Shown here one piece after another: positions 23,123-27,952 of a DNA stretch of 42,138 nucleotides. The notes beneath the pieces were generated by a model, which had not been told where the DNA came from, made no database searches, and saw only the letters and a list, made by a program, of their open reading frames with translations. A program made the position numbers and the translations under genes. This DNA is from a virus (Duplodnaviria > Heunggongvirae > Uroviricota > Caudoviricetes), in the IMG/VR virus record IMGVR_UViG_2526164691_000033, positions 1 through 42,138 of that record, one strand, 5' to 3'. Within the stretch, counting starts at the first letter, position 1; the number at the start of each line of letters is the position of its first letter.

Positions 23123-23415
23123 TCCTGTTCACTGGCCTCTTTGGCCATCTTCAAATACTGTTCAGGGCAATGCGCCATAACGCGCTGAAACAGTTCCAGC
23201 GCCAGATTGCGTTGCCCCTCATTAAATGCCATTGCCATAGCGTCCATCGGTGAGATAGCGGAAAACACACGGCCTTTCTCCAGCACAGACCAGACAACGC
23301 GACGCCCCTGTTCACTGCTCATGACAAAGCGAATGTCATCAATTTCACGCTGTGCCATGTCACGTTGCTTACGGGCGTTTTCTTCTTTCAGTTGATCGTC
23401 TTCGTAATCTGTCAT
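23119..23415 (-). CDS. hypothetical small protein (head module)
   Basis: Overlaps portal stop and scaffold start. Confidence 0.4.
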   Translation of the reverse strand: MTDYEDDQLKEENARKQRDMAQREIDDIRFVMSSEQGRRVVWSVLEKGRVFSAISPMDAMAMAFNEGQRNLALELFQRVMAHCPEQYLKMAKEASEQE

Positions 23416-25091
23416 TGTGATTGCCCACCCTGACCACTAACTGCATTCGCCATAGCTGACAAAACACTCGGATCCGAAGTTTTAGCTTCGCTTAGCGTCT
23501 TGGCACCCTGTGCCGCCGCCATCCCCATCGCCATCATTTGTTGCTGCTGTTGCTGCTGTGCCCGTTGCTGGCGAGCCTGATCAACCTGTTCCTGCGGAAC
23601 AATGACGGTTGGAGACACTCCGGACATATCAGCGAATGCATCGATCGCCTGATCAACGTTGAGTTTGTCGAGAGCTTCTGGTTTCGCTTGCGCAAGTTGA
23701 CCAATGAAGTTAACCGTGGACGCCAGACTGGACAGGCCGATAGACTTCTGCGCCTGAGCCATGACGGAAATGTATTCGACCTTCAGGGGCATGCCTTCCA
23801 TCGCGTCAGGCGGTGGCGGCAGCATGTTTTTACGCACCATCATCGAGAAAGCGCGGTCAATGAGAGGATTAAGACATTCGTCGTTCAGACGCTCCAGAAC
23901 CGGCCCCAACATCAGAAGTTTTTCTTCTTTCATTTCGATCACCGCTTCAACAGGCATCGAGCGGGTATTGATGTTCTGCAACATCATGAACAGATCGACA
24001 AAGTAGGCGCTGTTAATGATTTGACGAGTGTCCTGAATGTCTGCTACCAGATCTGCTGTACTGGGGTTAACCAGATAAGCAGGCCTGAAACCATCCTGAC
24101 CAGTAATCTGATCGATATACGTGATGTCGCCAGGAAGAAGGGAGGCGCGCTGATTCTTGAGGGAAGTCGGAGCAACCATCGGCGGATTGGTGGCTTTATC
24201 AATCAACTGCGACTTGCGCTTCTGAAGAAGCTGCAATGCCTTAACAGGTCCAAGCGCCAGCATACCCGGGCATGATGATCCATAAACATCTTCGCCGTTA
24301 ACTTCCCAGCGCGGAGCCATAATTGGAAACTCATCGAATCCGGACTCACGCAACAACTTGTCGTTATCGCCGCCAACCTCGTAATAAACCGATTTGAATG
24401 GCTTGTTCTTGCTATCCAGCTTCGATGTATCGCGGTCAATGTTCGGGTAAACCGAATGCATCACCTCAATCCACTTCTCGTAGGTGCCAATTTCCCACAT
24501 GCTTTTTACGGATTCGCTGACGTTATTTAGCCCGAACTCCTGAACAAGCTGACGAACAGTCATAGAGAACTTGCGAAAACAGGTGTCCACACTGCCACGA
24601 GGTGAGTTAGCCAGGTAGTAACTACCTATCGGGAATGGCATTGTGCGAATGATGTCCTCGTCATCCTCCAGCACCGCCATTGCACCAGTGCTGTATGTGC
24701 CGAGGCTTCCGTATAACTGCGGAAGAGACTGGTAGAGATTCGACTTATTGAACATATCATTCATGCGGTTCTGCACCGCCTCAAGCCACAACTTAACAGG
24801 GCCATAATCCATCATTTCAGGATCTGGCGTAGCCAGGCGAAACCACGGACGCGCGGGGCTTGTGATGCCTGACATCATGCCGCTGGCGAGAGTGCGCGCC
24901 GCCATAGTCCCGGTCGAATCAATAATGCGTGTATTGCGTCGATCGTTACGGTTGACCTCAGAAGTCAGAAAGCGGGAACCACGCGGGTTGATGTAATCAC
25001 TCAACTCGCGCCAGTGCGGCTCGAACGACTGACGCTCGCTTTCAAGTTGTGCGAACTGTTTGTTCAATCGCTCTTTAGTTGTTTCCGCCAT
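23412..25091 (-). CDS. portal / head-to-tail connector protein (T7 gp8-type)
   Basis: 559 aa; Gln/Ala/Met-rich C-terminal tail (QQRAQQQQQQQMMAMGMAAAQGA) resembles the T7 connector C-terminus as recalled; precedes scaffold and capsid. Confidence 0.7.
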   Translation of the reverse strand: MAETTKERLNKQFAQLESERQSFEPHWRELSDYINPRGSRFLTSEVNRNDRRNTRIIDSTGTMAARTLASGMMSGITSPARPWFRLATPDPEMMDYGPVKLWLEAVQNRMNDMFNKSNLYQSLPQLYGSLGTYSTGAMAVLEDDEDIIRTMPFPIGSYYLANSPRGSVDTCFRKFSMTVRQLVQEFGLNNVSESVKSMWEIGTYEKWIEVMHSVYPNIDRDTSKLDSKNKPFKSVYYEVGGDNDKLLRESGFDEFPIMAPRWEVNGEDVYGSSCPGMLALGPVKALQLLQKRKSQLIDKATNPPMVAPTSLKNQRASLLPGDITYIDQITGQDGFRPAYLVNPSTADLVADIQDTRQIINSAYFVDLFMMLQNINTRSMPVEAVIEMKEEKLLMLGPVLERLNDECLNPLIDRAFSMMVRKNMLPPPPDAMEGMPLKVEYISVMAQAQKSIGLSSLASTVNFIGQLAQAKPEALDKLNVDQAIDAFADMSGVSPTVIVPQEQVDQARQQRAQQQQQQQMMAMGMAAAQGAKTLSEAKTSDPSVLSAMANAVSGQGGQSQ

Positions 25092-25105: not shown

Positions 25106-25312
25106 TTACTGACCAAGCAGCGTTTTACCGCTGGTATTAGCGGTTGATGTGTCGCCCTGAGAACCGGTAAGCAGCGTAGAACTACGACCAGCAGCAGCGC
25201 GACGGCGACGTGTTTCTTCGTCGCGGGCATCAACAACGGCGGCATCCTGCTCCTGTGGTGCTGCCTGAACTTCTGGTGTTGCAGGCACTGATGGTGAGCT
25301 ACCCATGCACAT
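25106..25312 (-). CDS. hypothetical small acidic protein
   Basis: 68-aa ORF ending 14 nt before the portal start; the alternative overlapping frame looks less protein-like. Confidence 0.3.
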   Translation of the reverse strand: MCMGSSPSVPATPEVQAAPQEQDAAVVDARDEETRRRRAAAGRSSTLLTGSQGDTSTANTSGKTLLGQ

Positions 25313-25402
25313 ATCAATGACTCCGTACGCAATTAAATTATTACCAATTTAACCACATGTGATTTATTTATCGTAGATAGTTGACATTTAACGCACAAAT
25401 TA

Positions 25403-25417
25403 TTACCTTTCAGGTAA
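25403..25417. promoter_or_regulatory. operator motif TTACCTTTCAGGTAA with TTGACA 17 nt upstream
   Basis: Perfect palindrome; TTGACA at 25381-25386; heads the plus-strand tRNA unit. Confidence 0.5.
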
Positions 25418-25739
25418 TCAAAGGGTTCATTCCGGTTATTAACCTGACTGGCTTGTCGTTAAATTGAACAGGTGGAGTGAGCTTTTATTTTGAGCAGTAC
25501 GGCGTATGGCACATGCGCCGATAGCGGTCTGGATACGTTTAAGGGGCACCCTCCCTTGCTCGGGCAAACGAACCAGGTAGCCGGAATGTGCAAGTCGAGC
25601 GGTTTTATTCCGCGCACGGGGATTCACCATCCCGGCGATTCGGTGTGACGCCTCGGAAGAGACGAGGGTACAACGATGAGAGCATTTATGGAGCCGCGAC
25701 AAAGTGTGGCGCCTTAACAGGCTAAGTGCTCTCAGCGTT

Positions 25740-25816
25740 GTGGCATTAGCTCAGTTGGACAGAGCAACCGCCTTCTAAGCGGTTGGTCGCAGGTTCGAAT
25801 CCTGCATGCCACGCCA
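25740..25816 (+). tRNA. tRNA-Arg (anticodon UCU)
   Basis: 77 nt; 7-bp acceptor stem GTGGCAT/ATGCCAC; D-loop AGCTCAGTTGGACAGAGC; anticodon stem ACCGC/GCGGT with loop CTTCTAA (anticodon TCT); T-arm GGTTCGAATCC; discriminator G and CCA encoded. Confidence 0.85.
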
Positions 25817-26014
25817 GAATCACGCCTAAGGACCGTGATGCCAGAAGTTCCAGGTGCTTGGCGGTGATAGTTTCCCTTGAAGGACTATCACCGCCCTTTT
25901 TACAGCAGGACGCCATTGCGATGACTTCATGCTGTAAACCCGTACAGCCACGGAAGGCATAACTCATTGCTTCCAGTTCGCCCGGTTCGCCGGGCATTTT
26001 TTTAAGGTGAGATT

Positions 26015-26386
26015 ATGAACGACCAGCAAATCGAAAAAGAAATCGTTGAGAAAGGCAAAACGGCACCGCGCGTTACGCCAGACCATATCGAAGGCATTAT
26101 TGCTCAGGAGGCATATTTCACAGCAGAAGATGGTGCCTTTGGCAAAGCCATAAAAGCGAAACATACTGGCGGAGAGGTAAACTACCAGCCGCACGAATCA
26201 CTTTCTCTGCTGACGTTCTGCGTCCTGGTGCTGCGCAACGGCTTCACCGTCACCGGAGAGAGTTCCTGTGCAAGTCCGGAAAATTTTGATGCAGAAATTG
26301 GTCGGAAGATTGCCCGGCAGAATGCTGTAAACAAAATCTGGATGCTCGAAGGTTACTTGCTGAAGCAGAAGTTAAGCGAGCAATAA
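26015..26386 (+). CDS. hypothetical phage protein (possibly Gp49-like family)
   Basis: 123-aa ORF on the strand opposite to the flanking virion genes, downstream of the tRNA and followed by a terminator; family assignment is from memory only. Confidence 0.45.
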   Translation: MNDQQIEKEIVEKGKTAPRVTPDHIEGIIAQEAYFTAEDGAFGKAIKAKHTGGEVNYQPHESLSLLTFCVLVLRNGFTVTGESSCASPENFDAEIGRKIARQNAVNKIWMLEGYLLKQKLSEQ

Positions 26387-26406
26387 CACCGTGGCATGTC
26401 ACAAAC

Positions 26407-26435
26407 AGCCAGCCTATGAGCTGGCTTTGTTTTAT
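26407..26435 (+). terminator. rho-independent terminator
   Basis: AGCCAGC/GCTGGCT stem followed by TTTGTTTT. Confidence 0.55.
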
Positions 26436-26476
26436 CCTCACCAGAGGATATCAACGACATTATCCCCACCAGCGGA

Positions 26477-27952
26477 TTAAGCATAAGGGTCATAATCCGT
26501 TATGGCCCTTCCCTGCTGGCTTTGCTGTCCTGGTATATTTATGCGTTTCGAGACCGGGAAAGCAAACGTCAGCAGTAGCGCATCGCCTTTACCAGGAGAA
26601 CGCCCAAGACGCTCTTTGATATCTTCCTTCGGTTCGATAACGATTTTACCGTCCACACGAACTTTGTACTCTGCCGCCGACAGGTCGTCTGCAGTTTCCT
26701 GGTCATCCAGCATGCCGCCCAGCCTCAGCCATGTCTTACATGAGTTGAACATCTCCCCACGCTTGTTAAGCATCTGCGGGTCAGTGGACGCACCGCCGAA
26801 CGGAACAAGTTGCCATGTACGTCCCCAGCCATCACCGATTGACTTCAAACCGGTTCCATAACCGAAGTCGATGAACACCGCGTCAGCCTGATACTGGTCT
26901 TCAAAGTCAGCGATACGCTTCGCCATAATCAGATCGTCGGTGGTCTTGTTACCAGTCCATAGCACCTTACTGTGCAGCCCCTGCCGCAGGTATATCACAG
27001 CGTCATCAACGCCGGAGTATGCCGGGTCAACGCCGATTATCACCGGAGCATGTGCAACCTGCGCAGCGGTTACCACCCGTTTCATTGCCTCGTCAGTAAG
27101 GCCGGTAGGGATAAACTGCAATTCAGATGCATCCGGGAATATGCCGCGCACACGGATTTTAACGAAGTCGCTGTCTTCCCCGTAGTCATCAACCCATTTC
27201 TGCAACTGCTGTTTGTTAGTGCCTTCCACCGTCCGGCTGTCAATCTGCGCAGTTTTCCAGCGGTGTTTATATTTGCGGAAACATTCGCGGAAACGCCCGG
27301 TGTTACGTGTAGGGTTTCCGAATGCCACCCAGATAATCTCAGTGTCTTCGTCCGTCAGCGCACCCTCTGCTACCTCCCACACCAGATCGGCAATGTTGGA
27401 TGCTTCGTCGAATACCACGATGATGCGTTTGCGCTCGTTGTGTAGTCCGGCGAATGCCTCAGTGTTGTGCTCAGACCAGGGGATTGCGTCAGCTCGCCAC
27501 CGCTTGTCGTGCCCAGGGTCATTGCTGTACATCGCGGTAGCGGTACAGGTAAACCAGTCTTTCGTGATAGCAAGGTTCGACCACTTGATAATTTCCGGCC
27601 AAGTCTTCGTTCGTAGCTGGTTGTCGGTGTTGGCGGTCACCACGACCTTACAATCCTCGCAAGTGGACATGCCCCAGTTGATCAGCATTGAGATGAATGC
27701 GGATTTACCAATACCGTGACCAGAAGCACGTGCCAGCATAAGCGGCTGATATCGCGTCTCTGGATTCTGCAGGTGATCACGTATCTCTCGGAACGCATCG
27801 GCCTGCCACTGACGTGGACCGGTGGCATGTGCCAGTTCAGTACCCTCTTCCCCCCACGGGAACGCATAGAGGGCATAGCCAAGCGGATCGTGAGTGAACC
27901 CTGCAATATCCTCGATTAACTGCTCTTCAGGAGATAACGCTGTATCTGTCAC
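26477..27952 (-). CDS. terminase large subunit
   Basis: 491 aa; Walker A-like ARASGHGIGKSAF; acidic nuclease-type motifs in C-terminal half; 4-bp overlap with the small-subunit gene. Confidence 0.8.
   Translation of the reverse strand: MTDTALSPEEQLIEDIAGFTHDPLGYALYAFPWGEEGTELAHATGPRQWQADAFREIRDHLQNPETRYQPLMLARASGHGIGKSAFISMLINWGMSTCEDCKVVVTANTDNQLRTKTWPEIIKWSNLAITKDWFTCTATAMYSNDPGHDKRWRADAIPWSEHNTEAFAGLHNERKRIIVVFDEASNIADLVWEVAEGALTDEDTEIIWVAFGNPTRNTGRFRECFRKYKHRWKTAQIDSRTVEGTNKQQLQKWVDDYGEDSDFVKIRVRGIFPDASELQFIPTGLTDEAMKRVVTAAQVAHAPVIIGVDPAYSGVDDAVIYLRQGLHSKVLWTGNKTTDDLIMAKRIADFEDQYQADAVFIDFGYGTGLKSIGDGWGRTWQLVPFGGASTDPQMLNKRGEMFNSCKTWLRLGGMLDDQETADDLSAAEYKVRVDGKIVIEPKEDIKERLGRSPGKGDALLLTFAFPVSKRINIPGQQSQQGRAITDYDPYA

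Follow-up and report, generated by a model that had tools for sequence, protein, structure and literature searches.

The window analysed here is the whole 42,138-nucleotide (nt) stretch of DNA of a tailed virus (Caudoviricetes; IMG/VR record IMGVR_UViG_2526164691_000033). Within it, a plus-strand island at 25320-26441 had been described, in a sequence-only reading, as a promoter and operator followed by a structured leader of about 330 nt, a tRNA-Arg(UCU), a gene of 123 amino acids (aa) and a terminator. Judged from conservation and covariation, the former 'leader' at 25496-25742 is a conserved folded RNA module, not a passive leader. In this module, a core of about 170 nt, consisting of five hairpins with invariant junctions, is followed by a long helix that encloses a hypervariable insert and has its 3' end within the tRNA. 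By comparison with catalogued RNA families the module falls in none of them, and in practice it represents a new RNA family. The most likely course, at a probability of roughly 0.45, is excision of the module from its transcript by RNase P or RNase III, which would leave a stable early RNA.

The leader had been put forward for comparison with covariance models of RNA families. Run on 25420-25739, this comparison yields no Rfam 15 family at gathering thresholds, with only chance-level matches at the promoter edge in a permissive scan (E≥4.6), and a scan of 19 related loci likewise yields no family for the core. In full-text literature searches by sequence strings and by topic the element is undescribed, though a 2026 genome-language-model preprint on non-coding elements may hold a description. 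None of the sequence records examined annotates this RNA. The Pas small RNA, described in a preprint, is unrelated.

Fold and conservation of the core

The core was aligned from 33 non-redundant copies. Its parts in the window are as follows, with pairing given as the share of alignment cells that are paired.

25500-25520, plus strand: P1 hairpin, CGGCGUAU-GGCAC-AUGCGCCG; 96% paired; pair 9-21 is GC in 18 copies and AU in 15
25523-25529, plus strand: junction AGCGGUC, invariant in 33 of 33 sequences
25528-25577, plus strand: P2, with a conserved base (25528-25531 with 25574-25577, 100% paired) and a variable upper stem and loop
25576-25594, plus strand: 19-mer GGUAGCCGGAAUGUGCAAG (as DNA, GGTAGCCGGAATGTGCAAG), invariant in all aligned members
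25595-25617, plus strand: P3, a variable hairpin of 12-23 nt with unconserved sequence; the weakest helix
25619-25633, plus strand: P4 hairpin with loop UUCACCA; 97% paired; three of four pairs covary
25634-25649, plus strand: near-invariant junction GGCGAUUCGGUGUGAC, from the alignment
25651-25667, plus strand: P5 hairpin, CCUCG-GAAGAGA-CGAGG; 96% paired; four of five pairs covary

Four hairpins (P1, the base of P2, P4 and P5) are strongly supported by compensatory changes. In the P2 base, two pairs covary (CG/UA and GC/AU), and the individual sequences each fold to a stem. Over the whole alignment the paired share of cells is 81%, whereas shuffles give 72% and sliding the partners lowers it to 34-42%; double substitutions occupy 73 cells against 22 in shuffles, and none of 500 shuffles reaches the observed value. 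The G-U pairs are compatible with the plus strand only, which places the RNA on that strand. The covariance model built from the alignment has a single match in the window, at 25496-25677 (145 bits, E=5e-42). The leader as a whole folds at -120.1 kcal/mol, better than shuffles (z=-2.86), so the hairpins previously seen in it are borne out by fold energy and by covariation together. The earlier suggestion of a processed non-coding RNA holds for the structure, and processing is probable.

Between the helices run long invariant single-stranded stretches: AGCGGUC, the 19-mer and GGCGAU..GGUGUGAC. A pseudoknot proposed by RNAalifold joins the P1 loop GCACAU with AUGUGC of the 19-mer, where both sides are invariant and no covariation signal is possible. 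The presence of 19 consecutive invariant bases and of compensatory pairs in copies that are about 70% identical indicates purifying selection on the predicted fold. That the junctions are single-stranded and yet so extremely conserved suggests that they bind a conserved host component.

Upstream of the core, the minimum-free-energy fold contains a further helix, S0/S'0, which is seen in Uetakevirus copies only and there takes up the first 70 nt of the predicted transcript. Its 3' strand S'0 resembles the S' strand described below, and an alignment of the window with Enterobacter phage Tyrion, read by eye, displays compensatory differences.

25420-25486, plus strand: 5' terminal helix S0/S'0 (AAAGGGUUCAUUCC with GGAGUGAGCUUUU), enclosing small hairpins

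The P2 loop (25545-25556 in the window, and its counterparts in related copies) carries a recurrent YUCCUUG motif resembling an anti-Shine-Dalgarno sequence, and in the group with a long P2 this motif is paired with an AAGGGG stretch.

Closing helix, insert and tRNA junction

Directly after P5, two strands, S and S', are predicted to pair over about 19 base pairs (bp) with one conserved mismatch, and S' overlaps the first three nucleotides of the tRNA.

25669-25687, plus strand: S, the 5' strand of the closing helix
25688-25723, plus strand: apical insert of 36 nt, the hypervariable cassette position of the family
25724-25742, plus strand: S', the 3' strand, AAGUGCUCUCAGCGUUGUG, ending in GUUGUGG and overlapping tRNA nucleotides 1-3
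25740-25816, plus strand: tRNA-Arg(UCU) with encoded CCA (ARAGORN; Rfam RF00005, 73.3 bits, gathering score 29)

The closing helix is predicted at 17-21 bp in all 22 distinct variants. It was assessed by comparing cognate with non-cognate duplexes, as a fixed-register count of pairs is blurred by 1-nt insertions and deletions; the cognate S/S' duplexes have a mean energy of -28.1 kcal/mol against -20.7 kcal/mol for non-cognate ones, and none of 10,000 permutations is as good. The predicted S/S' pairing has the dimensions of an RNase III processing helix, about two turns of near-perfect double-stranded RNA. The conservation of the S' sequence exceeds the needs of pairing.

Within this frame, the size of the insert varies across the family between a few nt and over 380 nt, and its content is swapped between otherwise similar copies. 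Inserts may carry pieces resembling a tRNA T-arm, extra P5-like hairpins or tandem S-insert-S' units. The insert of one IMG/VR contig (locus L063, 384-430) contains a near-canonical type I hammerhead with all core nucleotides (28.7 bits; gathering score 34), and a regular-expression search of the other inserts finds no further hammerhead.

The junction at the 3' end of the module is occupied in several ways: by tRNA-Arg at 29 loci, by UGAAU-hairpin types at about 37, by a UAAU hairpin at 24, and by nothing beyond the core (P1-type) at 12. In some members the hairpin at this position keeps a GGCUGA loop while its stem covaries. In Phytobacter ursingii (L168, 2210-2288), a tRNA-like gene with the unnatural anticodon AAU sits at the same GUUG|UGG junction, and in L099 (1077-1203) that junction is followed by a 127-nt Rfam tRNA match that ARAGORN rejects. 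About 100 loci keep the core with no adjoining tRNA. Many P1/P7 and lambdoid copies have neither the tRNA nor the 123-aa gene alongside, so the module stands on its own and is not simply the leader of this tRNA or gene.

Among the core-only lambdoid variants (L090, L034 and L047), the core is followed by a hairpin and then by a boxA of the rrn type. In L090, about 129 nt past the 19-mer, this sequence is an exact E. coli TGCTCTTTAACAA, with 21/22 identity to the 16S-23S spacer of rrnH. In other relatives (L101, 1953-1999; L105, 3971-4017; L074 by eye), a segment just after the module resembles helix 11 of 16S rRNA; these segments match the Rfam small-subunit rRNA model at E of about 1e-7, and the one in L101 has 26/29 identity to E. 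coli 16S positions 254-282.

Distribution and genomic contexts

The phage in the window region is of the phiV10/epsilon15 type, with 96-99% identity to Escherichia phages phiV10 and TL-2011b and to O157 typing phages 9 and 10, all of the genus Uetakevirus (epsilon15 group). A sensitive BLAST search with 25420-25739 finds the module in 103 phage records whose backbones are otherwise unrelated, and the shared stretch begins at about 25499. Identity is about 82% in lambdoid phages (cdtI, mEp460, 2H10, Ayreon, Stx2c- and some Stx2a-converting phages), about 80% in P1, P7, D6, SJ46 and RCS47, and 70-73% in Klebsiella, Enterobacter and Salmonella phages. Of 5426 complete E. coli genomes, 1840 have the module, at 1920 places on chromosomes and 554 on plasmids, with no annotation of it among the matches listed from these genomes; it is present as well in at least 120 IMG/VR contigs retrieved with the invariant 19-mer. 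In reference genomes, one per species, real matches occur in species of six Enterobacteriaceae genera, namely Kluyvera, Phytobacter, Kosakonia, Citrobacter, Escherichia whittamii and Superficieibacter. This last scan used a short 15-mer, with which 112 of 120 matches are random and 8 real, so that the range, confined to Enterobacteriaceae, is poorly sampled.

Three unrelated phage backbones carry the module, always oriented in the sense direction of a repressor-controlled operon. In the Uetakevirus context, about 36 loci are arranged like the window. In the P1-like context, it belongs to the ban operon, which is controlled by C1, and is separated by 18 nt from a preceding tRNA-Ile(CAU) and by about 100 nt from ban; the P1 copy is a core without closing helix, placed directly after the tRNA-Ile, and in some P1 relatives the module stands at the end of a longer tRNA array. 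In the lambdoid context, comprising 69 loci, it starts 100-160 nt past the stop codon of a CI-type repressor gene with an S24 peptidase domain, on the same strand. In mEp460 the stretch from cI to the element holds a terminator, two operator-like repeats and a promoter-like sequence, so that the early-left transcript there begins with the element. The lambdoid genes downstream encode DUF2303, ParB-like and other proteins, and none of the downstream open reading frame (ORF) clusters scanned against Pfam is recognised as an N homologue. epsilon15 itself retains the promoter, terminator and ORF of the island and has lost the core. One locus, L028, has two cores in tandem (6652-6813 and 7457-7617), the second of which is degenerate in the 19-mer.

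Predicted promoter, operator and terminators

Upstream of the module, a -35 hexamer is read directly, and it is followed at a 17-bp spacing by a probable weak -10 hexamer that is overlapped by a perfect palindrome. After the tRNA come two strong intrinsic terminators, a small gene and a third terminator.

25381-25386, plus strand: -35 hexamer TTGACA, kept in five other Uetakevirus sequences
25404-25409, plus strand: probable weak -10 hexamer TACCTT; promoter function inferred
25402-25418, either strand: predicted repressor operator of 17 bp, the perfect palindrome ATTACC-N5-GGTAAT (ATTACCtttcaGGTAAT)
25860-25901, plus strand: intrinsic terminator 1, strong (terminator scan); hairpin 25860-25895 with a 14-bp stem, then CTTTTT
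25980-26003, plus strand: intrinsic terminator 2, strong (terminator scan); hairpin 25980-25995, with a T-run that enters the ribosome-binding site of the next ORF
26015-26386, plus strand: 123-aa gene, PF13876 Phage_gp49_66 (N4 gp49 / Sf6 gp66 family), by profile hidden Markov model
26407-26434, plus strand: intrinsic terminator 3 (terminator scan); hairpin 26407-26426 and T-run, annotated in the phiV10 record

Both hexamers and the palindrome are kept in Tyrion, in Salmonella phages SPN1S and epsilon15 and in a Klebsiella phage, so the TTGACA pointed out before is conserved across the genus. The TACCTT hexamer matches TATAAT at three of six positions, with A2 and T6 retained, and is too poor for a consensus promoter scan to make a call at TTGACA-N17-TACCTT. 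For TTGACA and operator together the span 25381-25417 had been given; the perfect palindrome exists, and its true span is 25402-25418. Allowing up to two mismatches, its motif occurs at 15 sites in the window against 1.1 expected, a number that none of 100 shuffles reaches, and the sites cluster in regulatory regions at about 6.4-7.9 kb, 28.5 kb, 33.5 kb and 35.5-36.7 kb.

3190, 6459, 6839, 7900, 25402, 28544, 28562, 33504, 33566, 35529, 35914, 36627 and 36688, either strand: operator motif sites (motif scan)
2654 and 13376, either strand: weaker operator motif sites (motif scan)

The homologous site in the epsilon15 GenBank record is annotated as the binding site of the lysogeny repressor, and by this similarity the predicted operator belongs to the epsilon15-type repressor operator class. 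Because the palindrome is a repeated motif and its epsilon15 homologue is a repressor site, the unit is read as repressor-controlled. The plus-strand transcription unit under an operator is thus upheld, and its assignment to the late operon is not: the operator places it in the repressor-controlled class, read as early, and the island would be silent in the lysogen and switched on early. The scattered sites suggest direct repressor control of many operons, as in P1. A tandem pair of operator sites lies just inside the 5' end of the small-terminase ORF.

The terminator that runs into the ribosome-binding site of the next ORF (window 25980-26014) is kept across Uetakeviruses (L006 3252-3287, Tyrion; L009 2033-2052; L007 1647-1670), Tyrion, SPN1S and epsilon15 among them. 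The ORF that follows is the PF13876 gene in the window and a gp49-like gene in Tyrion and epsilon15. The profile match of the 123-aa protein covers residues 20-120 with 117.2 bits against a cut-off of 27 (E=4.6e-34), so this gene stands as first described. Only one terminator had been described; the one at 26407-26426 is confirmed, and the two strong ones at 25860-25895 and 25980-25995 had been overlooked.

A proposed released early RNA

In the favoured model, departure of the repressor from 25402-25418 would allow host RNA polymerase to start near 25416, and most transcripts would probably end at the strong terminator at 25860-25901. Such a transcript would bear the structured RNA (25496-25742) fused directly to tRNA-Arg(UCU). 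A cut by RNase P at 25739/25740 would free the tRNA and set the 3' end of the structured RNA, and the long S/S' helix is likely to be cut by RNase III. Once free, this RNA of about 170-250 nt would be a stable early phage RNA acting on a highly conserved host component, while the tRNA would supplement AGA decoding and the PF13876 gene would be expressed to some degree by read-through of the two terminators.

The predicted promoter, the RNA, the tRNA and the strong terminator make up a complete RNA gene unit in the window. Release is preferred over tethering because several unrelated candidate cleavage devices adjoin the 3' side of the core: a true tRNA-Arg (29 loci), tRNA-like genes, the hammerhead of L063 and the helix of 17-21 bp. 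In P1, where the helix is absent, tRNA-Ile lies immediately 5' of the core.

Several points weigh against this model. The -10 hexamer matches its consensus poorly. Compared with the E. coli rrnH transcript in search of a pairing target, the conserved loops have no more complementarity than shuffled versions. The sequences show the RNA family, its fold, its spread, its contexts and the operator motif, while the steps from transcription start to action in trans are inferred. The position of the lambdoid copies, exactly that of nutL and putL, and the rrn-type boxA adjacent to or inside the element favour a role in cis. Finally, CRISPRi knock-down of trnI and ban in P1 causes no plating defect (PMC10695390), and any function of the module is accessory in laboratory conditions.

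Alternative explanations

The main alternative, possible though doubtful, is that the module is a cis-acting leader for processive antitermination, comparable in function to put of HK022, to nut of lambda or to the leader of rrn operons. Polymerase would be made resistant to downstream terminators by the nascent RNA, perhaps with Nus factors on the boxA-like stretch, and could then transcribe the PF13876 gene here and, in lambdoid phages, the early-left genes. This would fit the 69 lambdoid loci in which the module comes first after the CI-type repressor gene and the operator and promoter, with no N homologue in the scanned ORFs, as well as the antisense inserted genes that several of these loci hold between the module and the remaining operon. 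It would also fit the two intrinsic terminators between tRNA and ORF, with the conserved fusion to the ribosome-binding site, the boxA-like S' strand, which reads UGCUCU(C/U)..., and the core-only variants that continue into a hairpin and rrn-type boxA, perfect in L090. However, the boxA-like stretch is locked in the covarying helix, and a put-type RNA, which has to stay tethered, would be cut loose by the candidate cleavage devices downstream (tRNA, hammerhead, double-stranded helix). Each phage locus searched has a single copy, with none on the rightward-promoter side where that was covered, unlike putL/putR. In P1 the copy is 2.4 kb from the promoter and directly before ban, with no terminator between, and epsilon15 retains promoter, terminator and ORF despite the loss of the core. 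HK022 has no BLAST match to the module, a result for the phage as a whole and not a direct comparison with its put site.

It is quite unlikely that the module has no function of its own and consists of a tRNA precursor leader with decayed tRNA- and rRNA-like remnants, spread recently by recombination of temperate phages. The T-arm-like pieces, the tRNA-like genes and the 29-mer resembling 16S helix 11, in or after the inserts, would be expected of such debris, and the element appears dispensable, with epsilon15 lacking the core and the knock-down of the P1 ban operon tolerated. Remnants would nevertheless hardly account for the 19 invariant bases and compensatory pairs kept in copies of about 70% identity, nor for a core kept at about 100 loci with no adjoining tRNA, and neither the rrn operon (E=0.31) nor the tRNA models are matched significantly by the core profile.

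Still less probable is a riboswitch-like leader, in which a small molecule or a host factor, bound at the conserved multi-helix junction, would determine how much of the early transcript is continued. Invariant junction nucleotides with variable peripheral hairpins are typical of aptamers, and the element is always 5' of sense-oriented genes. Yet there is no shared expression platform, the core being followed by a tRNA, a hairpin, ban or a terminator depending on the backbone; the downstream genes share nothing, and no Rfam riboswitch matches.

A protein-coding gene on either strand, as annotated in some GenBank records (mEp460 gp37, Tyrion gp54, 'hypothetical protein'), is very improbable: window ORFs of 45-87 aa and annotated coding sequences (CDSs) do overlap the region, but length changes are not multiples of three, no 3-base periodicity is found, no frame is open in more than 9 of the 33 sequences, and the covariation follows RNA pairing. 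Coding periodicity in the leader, which had been named as the observation that would speak for a gene, was looked for and is absent. The statement that the leader has no ORF above 20 codons holds for ATG starts; with TTG or GTG starts there are ORFs of 52 and 45 aa on the plus strand and of 87 aa on the minus strand, and these are unconserved across the family. The 'hypothetical protein' CDSs over the module (L004 2443-2811, mEp460 gp37; L006 2711-2872, Tyrion gp54; and others) are probably annotation artefacts.

In a broader reading, the module could be a new class of mobile phage RNA, whose constant, tightly conserved core binds a central host machine and whose helix-closed socket carries swappable cargo (tRNA-like decoys, tRNAs, a hammerhead), exchanged against defences that target tRNA or translation or to reprogramme host gene expression within minutes of infection or induction. 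This broader proposal is speculative and, on the present evidence, rather unlikely.

Island setting and neighbouring features

Taken as a whole, the island is ordinary, an accessory unit under an operator that carries a tRNA along with a small gene. In plus-strand order it contains predicted promoter, operator, structured RNA, tRNA-Arg(UCU), two terminators, the PF13876 gene and the third terminator, antisense within the late gene block, and every part named in the sequence-only reading is present at or near the position given for it. In the records of the related phages the island occupies the site between the large terminase gene and the small gp3 gene, which is followed by the portal gene, with the flanking genes on the opposite strand. 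The unit had been placed between the terminase and portal genes; its plus-strand position there is correct, and gp3 intervenes before the portal gene.

26477-27952, minus strand: terL, large terminase, flanking the island
25106-25312, minus strand: gp3 gene, 68 aa, separating the island from the portal gene
23412-25091, minus strand: portal gene, beyond gp3

tRNA-Arg(tct) is the sole tRNA called by ARAGORN in the whole window, and ARAGORN and Rfam agree with the first description of an intact tRNA reading AGA. The earlier view that this tRNA would not be the integration site is reasonable. Usage in the window ORFs is 7.3 AGA and 5.4 AGG per 1000 codons. As E. coli uses AGA at roughly 2 per 1000 codons, supplementation of AGA decoding is plausible. 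The proposal that the tRNA aids translation of late genes is plausible to this extent, with a benefit that would not be specific to late genes, AGA being commoner outside the late block (8.6 per 1000 codons in non-late genes against 5.8 in late genes).

An exact direct repeat, AAATTATTACC, is found at 25335-25345 and 25397-25407 with a spacing of 62 bp. Its first copy lies within a block (25325-25372) that is near-invariant across the genus and is located upstream of gp3; this block may belong to a regulatory site or divergent promoter that serves gp3 and portal.

Elsewhere in the window (6891-7075, plus strand), Rfam recognises isrK (67 bits) with C4 antisense RNA (66 bits) immediately downstream, a pair that corresponds to the immI-type antisense control module of P1/P7. 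The operator sites at 6459, 6839 and 7900 surround it, and an ORF at 7109-7834 lies downstream.

Relation to known systems and significance

By context, the nearest in kind are the tRNA-linked phage RNAs and the antitermination RNAs of early leaders, and the module has no sequence or fold in common with those catalogued in Rfam. GOLLD, ROOL and the T4 stable RNAs C and D (species 1 and 2, of the T4 tRNA cluster) are structured RNAs of phages and prophages that lie beside or among tRNA genes, and in GOLLD a tRNA is sometimes embedded in the variable region. The module resembles these RNAs in being fused to tRNA-Arg, in following tRNA-Ile in P1 and in holding inserts with tRNA-like units. Unlike GOLLD and ROOL, whose models are presumably included in Rfam 15, it has no match there, and its core of about 170 nt is much smaller; unlike GOLLD, ROOL and the T4 RNAs, it is found in Enterobacteriaceae under direct repressor control in early operons.

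The put sites of HK022, of about 70 nt with two stem-loops, occur twice per phage, and lambda nut requires the N protein. In its lambdoid carriers the module resembles both in its place just after the leftward early promoter by the repressor gene, with terminators downstream and a boxA-like sequence nearby. This put-type promoter-proximal position upstream of terminators is found in the lambdoid and Uetakevirus contexts and not in P1. In contrast to HK022 put, the module occurs once, measures about 170-250 nt, folds into five hairpins and has candidate cleavage devices immediately downstream, and in contrast to lambda nut it has no N-like protein in the scanned ORF clusters, despite boxA-like strings and a hairpin with a GGCUGA loop.

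In eukaryotic MALAT1/mascRNA, the non-coding RNA gets its 3' end where RNase P cuts at the tRNA-like structure that follows it. Many members of the present family similarly have a tRNA or tRNA-like gene that abuts the 3' end of the module at a fixed junction, whereas many others have no complete tRNA there, and cleavage at the junction is a prediction. As in an rRNA operon, a long covarying helix encloses a structured insert with a tRNA directly after it, a boxA-like sequence is present (identical to rrn in L090) and 16S-like fragments occur in some relatives. Unlike an rRNA operon, however, the core has no rRNA similarity, and the boxA-like stretch lies in the 3' strand of a helix, not in a free leader.

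In conclusion, the 'hypothetical proteins' placed over this RNA in several GenBank records are to be corrected, and the family, compact and rich in covariation, is suited to structural study. The module is present in about one third of complete E. coli genomes, and the control of its promoters by the lysogeny repressor points to expression at the very start of lytic development. If functional, it would be an overlooked part of well-studied temperate phages, including P1/P7, Stx-converting and other lambdoid phages and the epsilon15 group, and it could bear on early gene control, phage tRNA production or counter-defence.

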